This document shows positions 4,908 through 36,463 of a DNA stretch of 46,657 nt, piece by piece (the stretch's first letter is position 1; the number at the start of each line of letters is the position of its first letter). The DNA comes from Promethearchaeota archaeon Loki_b31. Lineage in GTDB: Archaea > Asgardarchaeota > Lokiarchaeia > Sigyniarchaeales > SOKP01. A program made the position numbers and the translations under genes. The notes under the pieces are model-generated. The model was not told where the DNA came from, ran no database searches, and worked only from the letters and a program-made list of their open reading frames with translations. The stretch is taken from positions 1 through 46,657 of the forward strand of contig NJBI01000027.1 in assembly GCA_005222975.1 (NCBI GenBank), in the 5' to 3' direction.

Positions 4908-5051
4908 TTTAACACAACACTATTATTATTAAAATTTTTAATAATTATTCGCAATTGATATATTTATTTATGAAAAATATTCATTTTAAATATTGGGTTA
5001 TACAATATAAAATACAATAACTGTATTTATCAAAAAAATTTGGATGATCAA

Positions 5052-6395
5052 ATGGCGACAAGCGAAAATGAATATAAATTGATTTATACAGGTATTTTTT
5101 CTTCTTTATATTTTACTCAAGGAGTTACTCAGAGTATATTTACTGTAATTGTACCCGTATATCTGTTAAAAAAGCTTGGTACAATTGACACGGCGGCTCT
5201 TTCGTTCATGTTTTCCATTATTTTAACGCCTTTTATTCTTAAATTGATATATGGCTTATTAAGCGATAGATTTGGTTCGAAAAAACTTGGTAGAAGGAAA
5301 CCATGGATATTAGGTTCCACCAGTTTTACAGGAATTATGTGGATAATATTATCATTATTAATTCCCTTTTTACTTGATTCAAATCCTTAAGGAATTCTTG
5401 GTTATATAACTTTACTTGGTTTTATAATAATTTTAGGAGTAGCGATTTCGGATACCGCAATGGACGGATTTATTCTTGATATTTGTCCTAAAGATAAATT
5501 AGGGCGTACTATAGGAACAGTTTGGGCATTTAGATCTGTGGGAATAATAATTGGAGGTCCTTTAATTTTGGTCATTATTCAATTTATACAATTTGAATTA
5601 ACCCTAATTGTAATCAGTATCCTTACAATTCTATTTGGGCTTTTAACTCTGAAAATACCACACACAACTATTACTGAAAAAGTAAGATTGGGAAAAAATC
5701 TTAAATCAATGTTTAAGAGGGGCGAAAACTGGAAGCTGTTTGGGTTTTCGTTTTTTATGGCAATTGTAAGTGGTGTTATATTTACAATGATTTCACTATA
5801 CGTATTAGTACAAGCGGGCGTTGTTGCCGGTGAAGGCGCTACCCTTGATTTGTTAGAAGAAGATATAAGCCTATACAGCCCTCAGGCTATAATAACTTTA
5901 ATTATCGGATTAGGGGTTATTATAGGCGCGTTTGTAGGAGGTTCAATTGCAGATCGCAAAACAAGAAGGTTATCCGTTTTTCTAGCACTTTCATTAGGAA
6001 CGATTGCTCTTTTGTTGCAGCTAATTCCTACTGAATGGTTCATTTTACTAGTTTTTACTTTTATTATTGGAGCTTCGAGTGGTTGGAACAATTCAAGTTT
6101 TTCGGCTGTAGCAAGTGAATATTCAAAGCAATATCCTGAAGCAACAAGTACATTTTATTCTATTTGCACATCTTTTGCCAATTTAGGCATACAAACAGGG
6201 TTAATTCTTACCGGAATAGTGTTTAGCACTTTATCTAGTACGGTAACAGATATTAGGAATATTTTTGGAGTTGTCTTTATCCTGATGATATTCCTTCTTA
6301 ATCTTGCGTTAATTCCTTTCTTATTAATGGATCGCAAACAATATGAGTATAAGTTAAATAAAGGAGAACAAATACCATCTACCCAAAAATCATAA
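5052..6395 (+). pseudogene. MFS transporter (paralog of 167-1492) interrupted by one in-frame TAA at 5388-5390
   Basis: ORFs 5040-5390 and 5460-6395 are in the same frame; the linker reads DSNP*GILGYITLLGFIIILGVAISDTAMDG and matches the paralog's LGMAFADTALDG; likely ATG at 5052. Confidence 0.75.
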
Positions 6396-30892: not shown

Positions 30893-31672
30893 TTAATTAT
30901 TCTGATTTATTTCCCCTTCAACGATTTCAACAATAAGTGGGAATACATCGCCGATTTTTTCGTGGATTACAACTTCCGCAAATGAATCTACATCCGTTTC
31001 TTGAATGTTAATAATTGCGATTTTAGCACCCAAAGAAAGTGCTTTTCTAGGATAAAATGCCACGGGATATACTAATAAAGAACTTCCAAGAACGATTAAT
31101 AAATCACAACTATTAATCATGTCGTCTGCTTGACTCAATATTTCTGAACGCAAAGGTTCTCCAAAAAAAATCGCGTTTGGTTTCAATAGGCCATTACATG
31201 CTTCGCATGAAGGACGATTCTCACCCTTCATAACTTGATTTATCATCGTTGTAATGGGATAGATTTGATTACACGCCATACAAATTGCTTCGTGAGCTGT
31301 CCCATGTAACTCCACAATATTTTTACTATGGGACTTTTGGTGAAGACCGTCAATATTTTGAGTAAGAATTCCTTTTAATTTGCCAAACCTTTGGAGTTTA
31401 GTTAACATTTTATGACCCTTGTTAGGTCTTGCTTTAAATATGTTCAATCCCATCTCAAGCATAAAATCTAGATTTTTTTTAGTATCAGACACATACGAAT
31501 GGATGCTCGCAAACTCATCAGGATTTACTTTTTCCCATAAACCAGTGCCTGGGCTTCTAAAGTCCGCAATTCCGCTCTCTGTGCTCATACCGGCCCCAGT
31601 TAATACTACGATGTTGTTGGCATCAAGGATAAGTTGAGCAAATTTTTGAATTTTCGCATTCAAATCATTCAT
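30893..31672 (-). CDS. cobB: Sir2-family NAD-dependent protein deacylase
   Basis: TGAGMSTESGIADFRSP, TQNIDGLHQ, ELHG, CxxC..CxxC, KP...FFGE, GSSL.VYP. Confidence 0.92.
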   Translation of the reverse strand: MNDLNAKIQKFAQLILDANNIVVLTGAGMSTESGIADFRSPGTGLWEKVNPDEFASIHSYVSDTKKNLDFMLEMGLNIFKARPNKGHKMLTKLQRFGKLKGILTQNIDGLHQKSHSKNIVELHGTAHEAICMACNQIYPITTMINQVMKGENRPSCEACNGLLKPNAIFFGEPLRSEILSQADDMINSCDLLIVLGSSLLVYPVAFYPRKALSLGAKIAIINIQETDVDSFAEVVIHEKIGDVFPLIVEIVEGEINQNN

Positions 31673-31792: not shown

Positions 31793-32353
31793 ATGTCTGC
31801 TACAGATTCTAAATTTCAGAAAAGCTTCATTTACAAAATTTGCGTGGTTGGTAACGGTGGGGTTGGAAAAACTTCAATGGTTCTTAGATACTGCGAAAAT
31901 TCGTTTAGAGATAATTACCTAATGACTATTGGCTCAAATTTCAGTACAAAAACTGTAGAATTAGCTGATCATCCGCAATTTCAAGTAAAACTTCAACTAT
32001 GGGACCTTGCTGGACAGAAACATTTCTCCTTCGTCCGTCCACCATTTTATCGAGGTGCAACGGGCATAATTTACGTGTTTGATTTGACTAGACGCTCATC
32101 ATTTGCCGATTTAATAGAGTGGCGGGATGAAGTTGAAAAAGTAATTGGGCAAAAAGCAAGTCTTTTAGTAGGAAATAAACTCGATTTAGCGAAAGAGGGG
32201 AAAAGAGAAGTATCAGAACAAGAGGGGGACGCCCTCAAGAGTGAAGTCCACGCATTTAAATATTTTGAAACCAGTGCTAAACGGGGTGATTCAGTAGAAG
32301 ATGTGTTTAAGCTTTTAACTTTAGAAATCCTTAAAGCCTCGGGAAAAATTTAG
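31793..32353 (+). CDS. Rab-like small GTPase (Ras superfamily)
   Basis: G1 GNGGVGKT, G2 TIG, G3 WDLAGQ, G4 NKLD, G5 ETSAK; RabF-like IGSNF, KLQLW, FYRGA; no C-terminal prenylation Cys. Confidence 0.93.
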   Translation: MSATDSKFQKSFIYKICVVGNGGVGKTSMVLRYCENSFRDNYLMTIGSNFSTKTVELADHPQFQVKLQLWDLAGQKHFSFVRPPFYRGATGIIYVFDLTRRSSFADLIEWRDEVEKVIGQKASLLVGNKLDLAKEGKREVSEQEGDALKSEVHAFKYFETSAKRGDSVEDVFKLLTLEILKASGKI

Positions 32354-32404: not shown

Positions 32405-33171
32405 TTAAGTTTTAGATTCTTCCATTATTAAATTCAGGAATTGCTCTACTTCGTCCTTCGAGCACTCGTGATATTTTTTGTCTTCAGCCTTAATATAAAC
32501 AAGTCTGACGTTCTCTTTGGTGGGGTCTTCATCAATAGATTCTTTAAGCGTATTAAGCGCTAATTTTATTATCTCGTTGAAAGACATTCCTTCCTTATAA
32601 TTCTCTTTTAAATATTCTCTTGCAGTTGCTTCGCCACTTCCTAGAGCGTAAGCTTTAAATGCCCGATAAATCCCGCTTGGAGATGTAGTGTAAATCTGAG
32701 TGCCATTTGCATCAACAGCAACGAAGAATAGAGCACACCCAAAAGGTCTGATTTTGGTTCAGAAACTAATTGTTTCTAAGAATTTCCACCATACTGGGTG
32801 TAAAGCTGCTTCATGTCCGCTATTGACTTTACAAGCATATTCAACCTTACAGGCTCATCATATGTTAAACGAAAAGATTGCGCTTGAACTCGAGCGTAGT
32901 TAATTAAGGTTCTTGAATCGGCATGCAAACCGGCAATTGCAACGCCAATGTGCTCATCAACTTGAAATAATTTATCAATGGAATCAGCATCCATTAATTT
33001 TGAAGGAATTTTAATTTGAGCCGCTAAACAAACAGCTTCTTTTGATTTTACAGCCACAGCTAAAGTACCGCGCCTTACAGCCTCTAATGCATACTCTACT
33101 TGGAATAATCTTCCTTCGGGCGAAAATACTGTAAGAGCTCTATCATATTTTACCTGTCCTCCGCCAAACAT
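32405..33171 (-). CDS. psmA: Proteasome alpha subunit, two exons: join(complement 33171..32784, 32751..32405), 244 aa
   Basis: Exon 1: YDRALTVFSPEGRLFQVEYA...KQLYTQYGG. Exon 2 (different frame): IRPFGCALFFVAVD...TSPSG.Y...KAYALGSG...YL..NY...MS. Exons of 388+347 = 735 nt restore YGGIRPFG. Confidence 0.93.
32752..32783 (-). other. Predicted 32-nt bulge-helix-bulge (BHB/BHL-type) mRNA intron in psmA
   Basis: AUUCUUAGAAACAAUUAGUUUCUGAACCAAAA contains an in-frame UAG; internal stem UUC+AGAAAC/GUUUCU+GAA; central helix GUGG/CCAA (3 of 4 pairs); 3-nt bulges AA^A and AA^U; exon-exon helix UACACCCAG/UUGGGUGUG. Confidence 0.8.
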
Positions 33172-33325: not shown

Positions 33326-36325
33326 TTAATATACATATATTAATTTTTCTTGAGATTCGTAGATAATAGCACTATCGACAATCAAAGTCCATTTAAAGTA
33401 GAGTATTACACCTGCTTTCGTAGTGTTTAAGAAACCATTTAGGACTAAACCTTCACCAAAATACAATGTGGTATCTATTATTGTAAAATTTACTCGTGTA
33501 TAGTCGCCGTCTATAAATGTGGTGTTTTCAATTGGATACATATCTGGGGGTAAAATTAAGCTATAATCGACATTATTAGTAGTTTGGCTATATACAGATA
33601 GATTAACTTTAATGTCCAAACCAGGCGCAGAGAAGTTAGTATCGAAATTTTGAAGAGTTATTTCGAAGTTTGCTGGATTATCCGGATAAGTCATAGAAGT
33701 TTCCATCTCAAAGTTATATGAAATTGAAACATTAGAAATCGTTTCACCTTTCGTAAGGTTCAGATTGTCGTACGCATCTTGAGCGTTTTCACCATAACCA
33801 ACATTTCTAATAAATGCTTCTACAAACCCGGCTAATTTTAGCTGTTGAAGGCTGCCAGCAGTGCTATATGTAGGGATATAATAATAGATTGACCCTCCAA
33901 GGGGGTATATTAAAGTATTTCCGTGTCTTTTACCTGAGATTAAAGTAAGCTCTTGCGTTGCTTCAGATCCATAAGTTTCTCTCGCTGTTTTAGGACCAAT
34001 TAAATTTTCAATGGAATCTCTTGTATAATAGAAAATTGCTTCACCAAAATGATCACCGTGTCTGACTACATATATTCCTGCGAGTAGTGTCGCTGTTTGA
34101 CCTTTATATTCAACCAAATCTAAACCAATATATTCAATTCCATCACCTAAATCAGTTTCTATGTAGAATAAATTACCATCTTCGGGTCTTTCGTGGAAAT
34201 CATCGCCTCTTTTCCATGTTTGAGAATTTCTTACGTGATATTTGTAATTCGCTTCTAATTGTAATTCAAATAAATCCTCTGGATAGCGTAATTGTGCTTT
34301 TAACCACTCTGGGACTGTTTGCCAATCATATTTTTCCAAATAAATTTCCCAGAGAGGAGAAGTTGGGTCACCGCTAGGGTCTAAAGTCGGATTTTCATAA
34401 AAAGTCATCTCCCCACTTATTACATCGATTAAACTAACGCCTAAAAATCTTAATATAGGATATTGAGCATACGAACCTACATTGATATATGTATAAATCG
34501 AAACGGCATAATACATTTTACCTCGGGTCATATCAAATACTAAGTAGGGATCACTGTCAATTCTTAATTGAGGAAGGAGTATCTGATAAACTCTGTTTAT
34601 AACATTTCTATTAATCAAATACTCATGTTTACTATTAAAAGCGTAAGCAAAAAGTCCTATGTTTAAAGTTTTCCAAAAACCTTCCAAGCCAGTAAGAATC
34701 CCGTCTGGTTCTTCCTCATATGTAAACTTATTATTAGGAATTCCTTCTGCCCACTCAGTATTAAGTAATATATCAGAATCATAGGCGCCTAGAGCCCCCG
34801 ATTCGTAATAACCTAAAGTTTGTTCGAGATATCGTTGGCTTTCGCTTTCCCCAAAGAAAATTGGATAATTTTCAGTGATGTTGAAGGTTAAAGACACATT
34901 TACTAAGTCACCCGTAAAGGTATCCATTGCTAAAAAACCCTCAACATGATCGTATAATTCAGTGTTAGTCTGGACAGCATCTCCAGCAATTTCTGAAAAC
35001 CGTACAGATTTAGGTGCAACCCAATATTCTTTATTATTTATATATACTATGTCTGAATCTGCTAAACCCTCGAATGTAGAACCGATTGAAGCCGCTAAAT
35101 ACTGAACAGCAAAATTTTGATCAAATTGTCTAACTTGGGATATCATTAAAGCGTCGGAAGTTGTAGAAGATTCGGTAAAGTTCGAAATTGACCGTTCTTC
35201 AAACATATCTAAACCGGCACATGTCGAAGTCCATTCAATTTCCCTTTTATATTTTTTTATCCATTGTTGTTCTGTCCACACTGCTGTGTTGTTTAGGTTT
35301 AATGTTGGTCCAATACTGAATATTAATGGAGTAAGTGTGAAAGCAATTACGATTACTATGATATAGATGATTTTTTTTTGTTTAAACCGCGAAAAAATGT
35401 AATTTGCCGAATCTTTTTCGAACTGCATTTTTCCATAAAGGTACATGAAGATTCCTAAAGATGTCATTGTTATGAAACCCAAAATAACTGCCCATATTTG
35501 GATAAGACCTATACCGTCTAAAGGGAGCGTTGCAACGAAAAAGAATCCAAGTCCACATAGTAAACCAATTATTAAGAAAGCATTTGAAATCACATAATAG
35601 TCGTTTTTACGTAAATATGTATTCTTCACTATGTTAAGAACCAATCTAAGAATTAATACTCCAAAAATAAAAGTCACTACTGGGAGAATTAGATTTGAGT
35701 AAATAAAAATCGTTACAAAATCCTTGTTATTCGAATCAAATAAAACAGCAAACGCGTCTAATATTATGTTTGGAGTAATTTCAATTTGCCCGTTTTCAAT
35801 CAAATAGATTGTCCAAGAAAAGCCGCCATTATTTACATCAAGTAGTAAACCTAATAAATAGAACATTACAAATCCAATCGTCCACCAAAACGCTAATGCT
35901 TTTAACCTTGAGGGTTTTCCGAATCTTAGCTTAGTACCAATTATAGTTAACAAATTTCTTTCAGGTGGTAAACTCATTATAACAGATCCTATAAATGCCC
36001 CTATTAATGCAGTTTTGTTAAATATAAAATTAGTAGACCACAGATTTAAGAAGTAAAAATCAAAGAAATCAATTCCACCCGCTTTATTTGAATACAATTG
36101 AGCCTGAAGATTAATATTCCCGAACCAAGAGGGCCACCACCAGAAAATGGCCATCGATGTAATTATCGCAACAACTACAATAATCAGGAGAATTAGTTTT
36201 TTATAATGACCATTTTTTTTAAATAGGTTGTAATTAAACCGAGCATCTTTTACTACATTTGCATCTTGACAGTCTTGACAATAATAGTTAAATTTTTTAT
36301 GTTTCTCACACGATTTTTTTGCCAT
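33326..36325 (-). CDS. UPF0182 (COG1615) family membrane protein with N-terminal Cys/His motif
   Basis: N-terminal TM bundle then a large soluble domain with DPYLV...GK.Y, LKAQLRYPEDLF..Q...Y.YHV, YY.P.Y...LKL motifs. Confidence 0.8.
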   Translation of the reverse strand: MAKKSCEKHKKFNYYCQDCQDANVVKDARFNYNLFKKNGHYKKLILLIIVVVAIITSMAIFWWWPSWFGNINLQAQLYSNKAGGIDFFDFYFLNLWSTNFIFNKTALIGAFIGSVIMSLPPERNLLTIIGTKLRFGKPSRLKALAFWWTIGFVMFYLLGLLLDVNNGGFSWTIYLIENGQIEITPNIILDAFAVLFDSNNKDFVTIFIYSNLILPVVTFIFGVLILRLVLNIVKNTYLRKNDYYVISNAFLIIGLLCGLGFFFVATLPLDGIGLIQIWAVILGFITMTSLGIFMYLYGKMQFEKDSANYIFSRFKQKKIIYIIVIVIAFTLTPLIFSIGPTLNLNNTAVWTEQQWIKKYKREIEWTSTCAGLDMFEERSISNFTESSTTSDALMISQVRQFDQNFAVQYLAASIGSTFEGLADSDIVYINNKEYWVAPKSVRFSEIAGDAVQTNTELYDHVEGFLAMDTFTGDLVNVSLTFNITENYPIFFGESESQRYLEQTLGYYESGALGAYDSDILLNTEWAEGIPNNKFTYEEEPDGILTGLEGFWKTLNIGLFAYAFNSKHEYLINRNVINRVYQILLPQLRIDSDPYLVFDMTRGKMYYAVSIYTYINVGSYAQYPILRFLGVSLIDVISGEMTFYENPTLDPSGDPTSPLWEIYLEKYDWQTVPEWLKAQLRYPEDLFELQLEANYKYHVRNSQTWKRGDDFHERPEDGNLFYIETDLGDGIEYIGLDLVEYKGQTATLLAGIYVVRHGDHFGEAIFYYTRDSIENLIGPKTARETYGSEATQELTLISGKRHGNTLIYPLGGSIYYYIPTYSTAGSLQQLKLAGFVEAFIRNVGYGENAQDAYDNLNLTKGETISNVSISYNFEMETSMTYPDNPANFEITLQNFDTNFSAPGLDIKVNLSVYSQTTNNVDYSLILPPDMYPIENTTFIDGDYTRVNFTIIDTTLYFGEGLVLNGFLNTTKAGVILYFKWTLIVDSAIIYESQEKLIYVY

Positions 36326-36463
36326 GTAAAATCAACAAATATTTTCTATTTTTTTTTACTTAAAATTAAAAAGATAAAATTTTTTTAGATAATATAATAC
36401 GTTAATATAAAAGATAATCACTAATATTAAGGATTTTCTTTTTTGAAGTATAGGTACTTTTAA

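Follow-up and report, generated by a model that had tools for sequence, protein, structure and literature searches.

We analyzed a window of 46,657 nucleotides (nt), which is the entire contig C67 (NJBI01000027.1) of a 3.5-Mb draft genome of the Asgard archaeon Promethearchaeota archaeon Loki_b31 (99 contigs, 31.5% GC, 92% complete, 6% contamination), and focused on psmA, the gene for the proteasome alpha subunit. psmA lies on the minus strand at 32405-33171 and is interrupted by 32 nt at 32752-32783. From an ATG at 33171, the frame encodes the 129 N-terminal residues of the alpha subunit and ends as ...YTQYGG-N-S-stop; the protein then resumes in a different frame 32 nt downstream and runs to its normal end at 32405. 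Removing 32752-32783 yields GGU GGA A/UC AGA CCU (the slash marks the junction) and a 244-residue alpha subunit with the motif YGGIRPFG. The product is identical when both cuts are moved by -1 or -2 because the junctions are flanked by runs of A. In Pfam, exon 1 corresponds to Proteasome_A_N and to positions 1-98 of the Proteasome domain, and exon 2 to positions 101-188 of its 189. When aligned with solved chains, exon 1 covers residues 6-129 of 6he5_A and 4-128 of 1pma_A, and exon 2 covers residues 131-235 and 130-233, respectively, with only the split Ile codon between the two halves. An original prediction, made from the DNA letters, had described the split, the helices around it, the 32-nt removal, and the 244-residue product, and each of these statements about the sequence proved correct on recheck. 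Close homologues are named Promethearchaeota or Promethearchaeia in the database, which puts the host among the Asgard archaea. The features of the locus, with the insert labeled according to the interpretation argued for below, are as follows.

32784-33171, minus strand: psmA exon 1, 129 codons and the split Ile codon's first base (translation, Pfam, 6he5_A)
32752-32783, minus strand: putative intron of bulge-helix-bulge (BHB) type, 32 nt (10 other assemblies have homologous inserts of 29-32 nt at this codon)
32405-32751, minus strand: psmA exon 2, two bases completing the split codon, 114 codons, and the stop (Pfam, 6he5_A)
32794-32802, minus strand: outer exon-exon helix, 5' strand UACACCCAG (partner 32734-32742)
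32734-32742, minus strand: outer exon-exon helix, 3' strand UUGGGUGUG (fold and covariation)
32790-32793, minus strand: helix h, exon-1 strand UAUG (partner CAGA at 32747-32750, three of four pairs)
32786-32789, minus strand: central helix H, 5' strand GUGG, in exon 1 (partner CCAA at 32754-32757)
32754-32757, minus strand: central helix H, 3' strand CCAA, in the intron (three pairs and a G.A)
32783-32785, minus strand: 5' bulge AAA (predicted cut 32784/32783, by the BHB rule as in PMC5829648)
32758-32782, minus strand: intron hairpin h', UUC/GAA, a 2-nt bulge, AGAAAC/GUUUCU, and the loop AAUUA (-7.1 kcal/mol)
32751-32753, minus strand: 3' bulge AAU (predicted cut 32752/32751)

A Predicted Bulge-Helix-Bulge Fold Spans the psmA Insert

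In the predicted fold, the outer exon-exon helix UACACCCAG/UUGGGUGUG contains nine pairs, two of which are G-U, and leads into UAUG/CAGA, with three of four positions paired. The central helix GUGG/CCAA has three pairs and a G.A and is bordered by the bulges AAA and AAU, and the intron stem consists of UUC/GAA and AGAAAC/GUUUCU. We infer that the psmA pre-mRNA folds in this way in vivo, is cleaved by the splicing endonuclease EndA, and is ligated by RtcB. In the proposed sequence of events, 1) exon 1 and exon 2 would pair through the 9-bp outer helix and the short helix h, 2) GUGG at the end of exon 1 would pair with CCAA at the 3' end of the intron, the remainder of which would form a hairpin, and 3) two 3-nt bulges (AAA and AAU) would result on opposite strands, four positions apart. 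A heteromeric EndA, with subunits encoded on contigs C13 and C79, would then cut behind the second base of each bulge, after A32784 and A32752, and RtcB, encoded on C84, would ligate the exons and probably circularize the intron. The joined mRNA, reading GGU GGA AUC AGA CCU, would yield the normal 244-residue subunit, while the unspliced one would stop after 131 codons.

We compared this structure to chance by shuffling the 32-nt insert between the boundaries fixed by protein homology, requiring at least three of four pairs in the central helix, three of three in the closing one, and -7 kcal/mol or lower for the inner hairpin. None of 20,000 shuffles matched the psmA structure, which exceeds chance. 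The 69-nt stretch also folds more stably than its dinucleotide shuffles, with z = -2.9.

Inserts of 29 to 32 nt Interrupt the Same psmA Codon in 11 Assemblies

We searched 154 genomes of the host's order for the psmA orthologue, which was found in about 134. Most orthologues carry no insert, which was detected in 4 of the 154 genomes: the host and three other species of its family, one of them from another genus (G081), where the same codon is interrupted by 30 nt (G015), 31 nt (G016), and 29 nt (G081). A protein search for short exon-1 forms returned about a dozen truncated open reading frames (ORFs) of 130-143 residues, annotated as "hypothetical" or "partial" in the database and ending in GGN..., GGS..., GGD..., or GGI... 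followed by a stop. When the DNA of eight was inspected, seven metagenome contigs displayed a 29-31-nt insert at the same codon and one an ordinary frameshift. A metagenome scan with a loose BHB pattern gave a single psmA (L139) among the matches listed, identical to the G016 locus.

When the bulges of the 11 psmA copies are each cut behind their second base, every copy regains GG(I/V)RP and an open frame. The spliced frames reach a full-length stop at 239-244 residues in seven copies and stay open to the contig end in the other four, which are on short contigs. In contrast, the unspliced frames all stop at codons 131-140, even where the 30-nt insert is in frame, since it contains a stop. The bulges themselves are conserved: with a caret marking the cut, the 5' bulge is AA^A in nine copies and AA^U or AG^A in the other two, and the 3' bulge is AA^U in ten copies and AU^U in one.

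These copies bear on three other explanations. The draft state of the genome, with its 99 contigs and 6% contamination, could suggest that the insert is an artefact of assembling or sequencing a metagenome-derived genome, but ten further assemblies, drawn from different samples and sources (GTDB genomes, Logan, JGI, ENA, and NCBI), have homologous inserts with lineage-specific sequence at this codon, which makes an artefact barely conceivable. Self-splicing introns of group I or II were ruled out by size, at 29-32 nt. Finally, the ribosome might bypass the insert without any splicing, either by programmed frameshifting or by translational hopping as in phage T4 gene 60, which psmA superficially resembles in its short gap, with a stop close behind the GGA codon and then a hairpin. 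However, the landing codon does not match, since CCAAAAU rather than GGA precedes exon 2; the junction falls inside a codon; and inserts of 29, 30, 31, and 32 nt all require exact removal. Moreover, conservation falls on both bulges and on the helix that exon 1 forms with the intron's 3' end, which are the features recognized by EndA. We consider bypass very improbable.

Several related loci are disrupted in other ways. In a same-genus orthologue (L031, G042:C131, ~1355-1400), ~16 nt are missing upstream of the intron site, which removes the codons for DIKQQY and shifts the frame; this deletion does not resemble a BHB and could reflect either a genuine lesion or an error in assembly. At L175:1100-1130, the psmA break is a +4-nt indel and not an intron. 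The truncated ORFs of L175, P0123, and P0143 break 5-12 codons past the intron site (...RPFGCALFF, then out of frame).

Base Pairs of the Predicted Fold Covary

The original prediction had proposed looking in relatives for same-site inserts with covarying stems, and both were found in the ten other assemblies. In an alignment of four psmA sequences that was not fitted to any model, six pairs changed on both sides, which was matched by 0 of 500 shuffles. In the 11-sequence alignment (A2), built by alignment to a covariance model, two-sided changes affect nine pairs and 26 cells (0 of 500 shuffles, whether scored by cells or by covariation score), and 82.8% of cells are paired versus 25-45% when the partners were slid.

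All five modeled pairs of the inner stem covary, with 98% of cells paired, and h' and the inner stem taken together show 82-98% of cells paired and seven pairs with changes on both sides. In the central helix, where an exon base pairs with an intron base, a U-A pair has become A-U in two sequences. The closing pair of helix h is G-C in 10 of the 11 sequences and G-U in one. The outer exon-exon helix has 82.8% of cells paired and one compensatory pair, in which C-G is replaced by G-C or G-U. One pair of this helix persists through a Thr-to-Ser codon change that is matched by a synonymous Gly change.

The coupling between exons and intron also speaks to the possibility that psmA is a split gene, whose halves are made as two independent chains and come together as an alpha subunit, the hairpin serving as an intergenic spacer. 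Split proteins are known in archaea, and the exon-1 frame has its own stop. This nevertheless appears highly doubtful: exon 2 starts in the middle of a codon, within the GGIRPFG motif, its first start codon lies far downstream, and the break falls inside a single Proteasome domain. The covariation of exon with intron bases and the exon-exon helix would both be left unexplained. In contrast, the comparative data point to an intron in the pre-mRNA, of relaxed BHB form and excised by EndA and RtcB. Because inserts at the same codon, with compensating changes, recur in ten related assemblies, we regard the psmA mRNA as very probably spliced.

The Genome Encodes the Expected Splicing Enzymes

The host genome has two genes for proteins of EndA fold, of ~200 residues each, on contigs C13, around 36116-36340, and C79, around 5005-5253 (PF01974, both over the cut-off). 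The closest solved chains to the C13 protein are the crenarchaeal EndA chains 3p1z_B, 3ajv_B, 2cv8, and 2zyz_B (Aeropyrum, Sulfolobus, and Pyrobaculum), while the C79 protein is closest to the Methanocaldococcus jannaschii enzyme, a combination that fits a two-subunit EndA of (alpha-beta)2 type. Such an enzyme, with a broad specificity that accepts relaxed motifs, is reported for Asgard archaea (PMC5829648). RtcB is encoded on C84 (PF01139, 562 bits). Aragorn identified 22 tRNA genes in the genome, 11 of them with an intron call, and many others are probably hidden by multiple or noncanonical introns. This count is in line with a 2026 preprint that describes Asgard tRNA genes as heavily interrupted (10.64898/2026.10.13.758758).

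Purifying Selection on the Interrupted Gene and the Weight of Contrary Evidence

Several observations weigh against a BHB intron in psmA. First, the loose BHB pattern gives dozens of chance matches per 120 nt in the AT-rich host genome; the psmA fold alone proves little, and it is the comparative evidence that carries the case. Second, in the minimum-free-energy fold the outer helix and intron hairpin persist while the central helix is lost, and at -20.9 kcal/mol this fold is more stable than the BHB model (-12.9 kcal/mol). Third, the motif is relaxed and noncanonical, since the central helix has three standard pairs of four in all 11 copies, and helix h is weak, with 72.7% of cells paired. 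Fourth, alignment A2 was fitted to the model and thus favors the structure, although the unfitted four-sequence alignment agrees with it. Fifth, an ab initio census of BHB-like sites joining two open frames of at least 60 codons gave equal numbers in phase and out of phase at every stringency, and thus no in-phase excess, a census that is powerless given how common loose BHB patterns are. Sixth, no protein identical to spliced psmA from any intron-bearing lineage was present among the 120 best matches, which is uninformative. Finally, the genome encodes an intact second alpha paralogue on C94 (45% identity), and loss of the interrupted psmA might therefore be survivable.

The imperfect central helix deserves a closer look. 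Its nonstandard position is G.A, G.G, U.U, or A.A across the 11 copies, and since one such pair is a constant of all of them, it looks like a feature of the family rather than a sign of decay. The mismatch is usually a G.A beside the 3' bulge (columns 17/53 of alignment A2; 32789 with 32754 in the window). No copy pairs at all four positions, though one changed intron base would suffice for that.

The paralogue leads to the possibility that psmA is a decaying pseudogene, destroyed by insertion of the hairpin, with the intact C94 protein doing the work. Queried with psmA, certain genomes of the family yielded the paralogue alone, and ordinary frameshifts are present in psmA of two relatives (G042 and L175). 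Yet the C94-type paralogue is kept alongside the psmA orthologue in most listed genomes of the order, and purifying selection acts on the interrupted gene as it does on the intronless sisters. The psmA ratio of nonsynonymous to synonymous substitution rates (dN/dS), relative to the nearest intronless orthologues, is 0.08-0.12, and its lineage-specific codon changes are 14 synonymous to 4 nonsynonymous, compared with 14:6, 16:7, 19:2, and 11:2 in four intronless sisters, whose terminal branches are no shorter than that of psmA. In addition, a second lesion is found in none of the 11 intron-bearing copies, the insert sits at one codon across lineages differing by up to about 25% in DNA, and a dead gene would not maintain covarying helices. 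A pseudogene is thus improbable.

All in all, the predicted BHB pre-mRNA intron, with EndA and RtcB acting by the rule of cutting after the second bulge nucleotide, has strong comparative support, because 11 assemblies share the insertion site, the helices show compensatory changes, the gene is under purifying selection, and both enzymes are encoded in the genome.

The Putative Intron Is Patchily Distributed

The four closest relatives, with 93-95% protein identity, have psmA without the intron. On the gene tree, intron-bearing copies are scattered, with at least six to seven changes needed to explain their distribution, and a single clade of intron-bearers was rejected (approximately unbiased test, p-AU 1.7e-40). 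The most divergent psmA lineages sampled all bear the intron, and their introns are alike, in a metagenome sampling that is biased toward intron-bearers. The tree is plausibly explained by an old intron that was lost repeatedly and precisely, and lateral spread may be an alternative. When we checked for a co-conversion tract, which would hint at lateral acquisition, the region round the intron proved to be a divergence hot spot in intronless sisters too. Elsewhere in the host genome, no copies of the intron were found beyond short matches at chance level, and a dispersed repeat was ruled out on that ground.

The original prediction had also raised a regulatory switch reminiscent of HAC1/XBP1 splicing. 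This is unsupported: the intron is absent from relatives that are 93-95% identical and is patchy on the tree, a distribution that fits an element that comes and goes better than a conserved control device. Judged from these comparisons, the psmA intron is most probably an element that is tolerated and unstable in evolution, and not a regulator.

A partial second copy of the psmA 3' half lies on the opposite strand directly upstream at L009:1789-2100 (+), L168:131-442 (-), and L035:1719-1868 (+). It covers residues 138-241 at 69% identity, or residues 175-224 at 56% in L035, and occurs in G015 and a near-identical metagenome contig, with the shorter one in G057. This copy could be the remnant of a duplication or recombination near the intron site.

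psmA neighbors at 31793-32353 (plus strand) and 30893-31672 (minus strand) of the window include a gene for a small GTPase of the Arf/Ras/Roc family, and the GTPase gene adjacent to psmA is kept in three metagenome relatives (L173-L175). A Sir2-like ORF, judged by eye from its GAG..S..GI.DFR motif, adjoins it.

Other Genes of the Same Genome Carry Similar Inserts

The expectation that further introns of this kind had been misannotated was borne out by an FGGY carbohydrate-kinase gene of the same genome (C8:22301-23917; L160 and L161), split in a similar way by a 30-nt in-frame insert that contains a stop. Its best BHB register pairs AACC with GGUC, has bulges AAA and AAA, and restores TNQ/RET, and its exons abut on the Pfam domain FGGY_N at 3-78 and 79-245. 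Inserts that follow the BHB rule were also found in genes for a hydrolase (C68:1144-1830, 33 nt), an AAA+ ATPase (C45:8010-9791, 30 nt), a DeoC/LsrF-type aldolase (C99:11674-12497, 32 nt), and a histone (C83:34261-34527, 30 nt). The removal of these four inserts joins long open frames, although Pfam supports these junctions less strongly than that of the FGGY kinase. We think it fairly probable that BHB micro-introns of 29-33 nt, among them that of psmA, occur genome-wide in the mRNAs of this Asgard family and are gained and lost between close species.

Discussion

Among archaeal introns, those of tRNA and rRNA, reportedly surveyed by Marck and Grosjean in 2003, have the BHB design predicted for psmA: 3-nt bulges on opposite strands, a helix of four positions between them, and flanking helices. 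The predicted cuts likewise follow the second base of each bulge, EndA and RtcB are the expected enzymes, and the size of the psmA intron is in the range of tRNA introns. However, the psmA substrate would be an mRNA, the outer helix is formed by coding segments (the codons for YTQ and FGC), and every psmA copy has one nonstandard pair in its central helix. The EndA types that act on such motifs have been reviewed (PMC5829648).

In the literature that we searched, cbf5 of Crenarchaeota is the sole confirmed case of a BHB intron in an archaeal coding sequence, others being predicted (PMC2738675), and nothing was found on BHB introns in psmA or in Asgard mRNAs. From its sequence and its relatives, the psmA intron appears to be of cbf5 type, in a new gene and a new phylum (Asgard/Promethearchaeota), except that its central helix is not fully paired. 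The BHB intron of the crenarchaeal cbf5 pre-mRNA is said to have been described by Watanabe in 2002 and Yoshinari in 2006, and it was treated by Yokobori in 2009 (PMC2738675). In both cases the host's EndA is hetero-oligomeric and broad in specificity, some lineages carry the intron while close relatives lack it, as expected from gain and loss, and the gene is often mistaken for a frameshifted or split one. The two differ in that splicing of cbf5 rests on reverse transcription PCR and cleavage in vitro, while the psmA intron is predicted from sequence, and in that the psmA intron is one of a set, 29-33 nt long, that spans several genes of a single genome.

The resemblance to HAC1/XBP1, by contrast, is one of analogy only. 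There, Ire1 cuts the mRNA and Trl1 or RtcB (RtcB in animals) ligates it, under control of stress. Cleavage of an mRNA at stem-loops without the spliceosome, ligation, and a change of frame would be common to both, but the endonuclease and the RNA motif differ, no sign of regulation was seen for psmA, and its intron is dispensable in sister species.

Taken together, the comparative evidence (11 copies, covariation, and purifying selection) points to a core Asgard housekeeping gene whose expression would require splicing of its mRNA by the tRNA-type pathway. Gene callers split such genes into a truncated ORF and an orphan. The patchy distribution of the psmA intron offers a system in which to study the precise loss and gain of introns. 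If micro-introns of this kind are indeed genome-wide, routine cutting and rejoining of mRNA by tRNA-splicing enzymes would be part of how genes are normally expressed among the archaea most closely related to eukaryotes. Asgard cells would tolerate interrupted protein genes and process their mRNA before or during translation, which bears on how intron-bearing genes could become established on the way to eukaryotes, even though introns of the psmA type are unrelated to spliceosomal ones.
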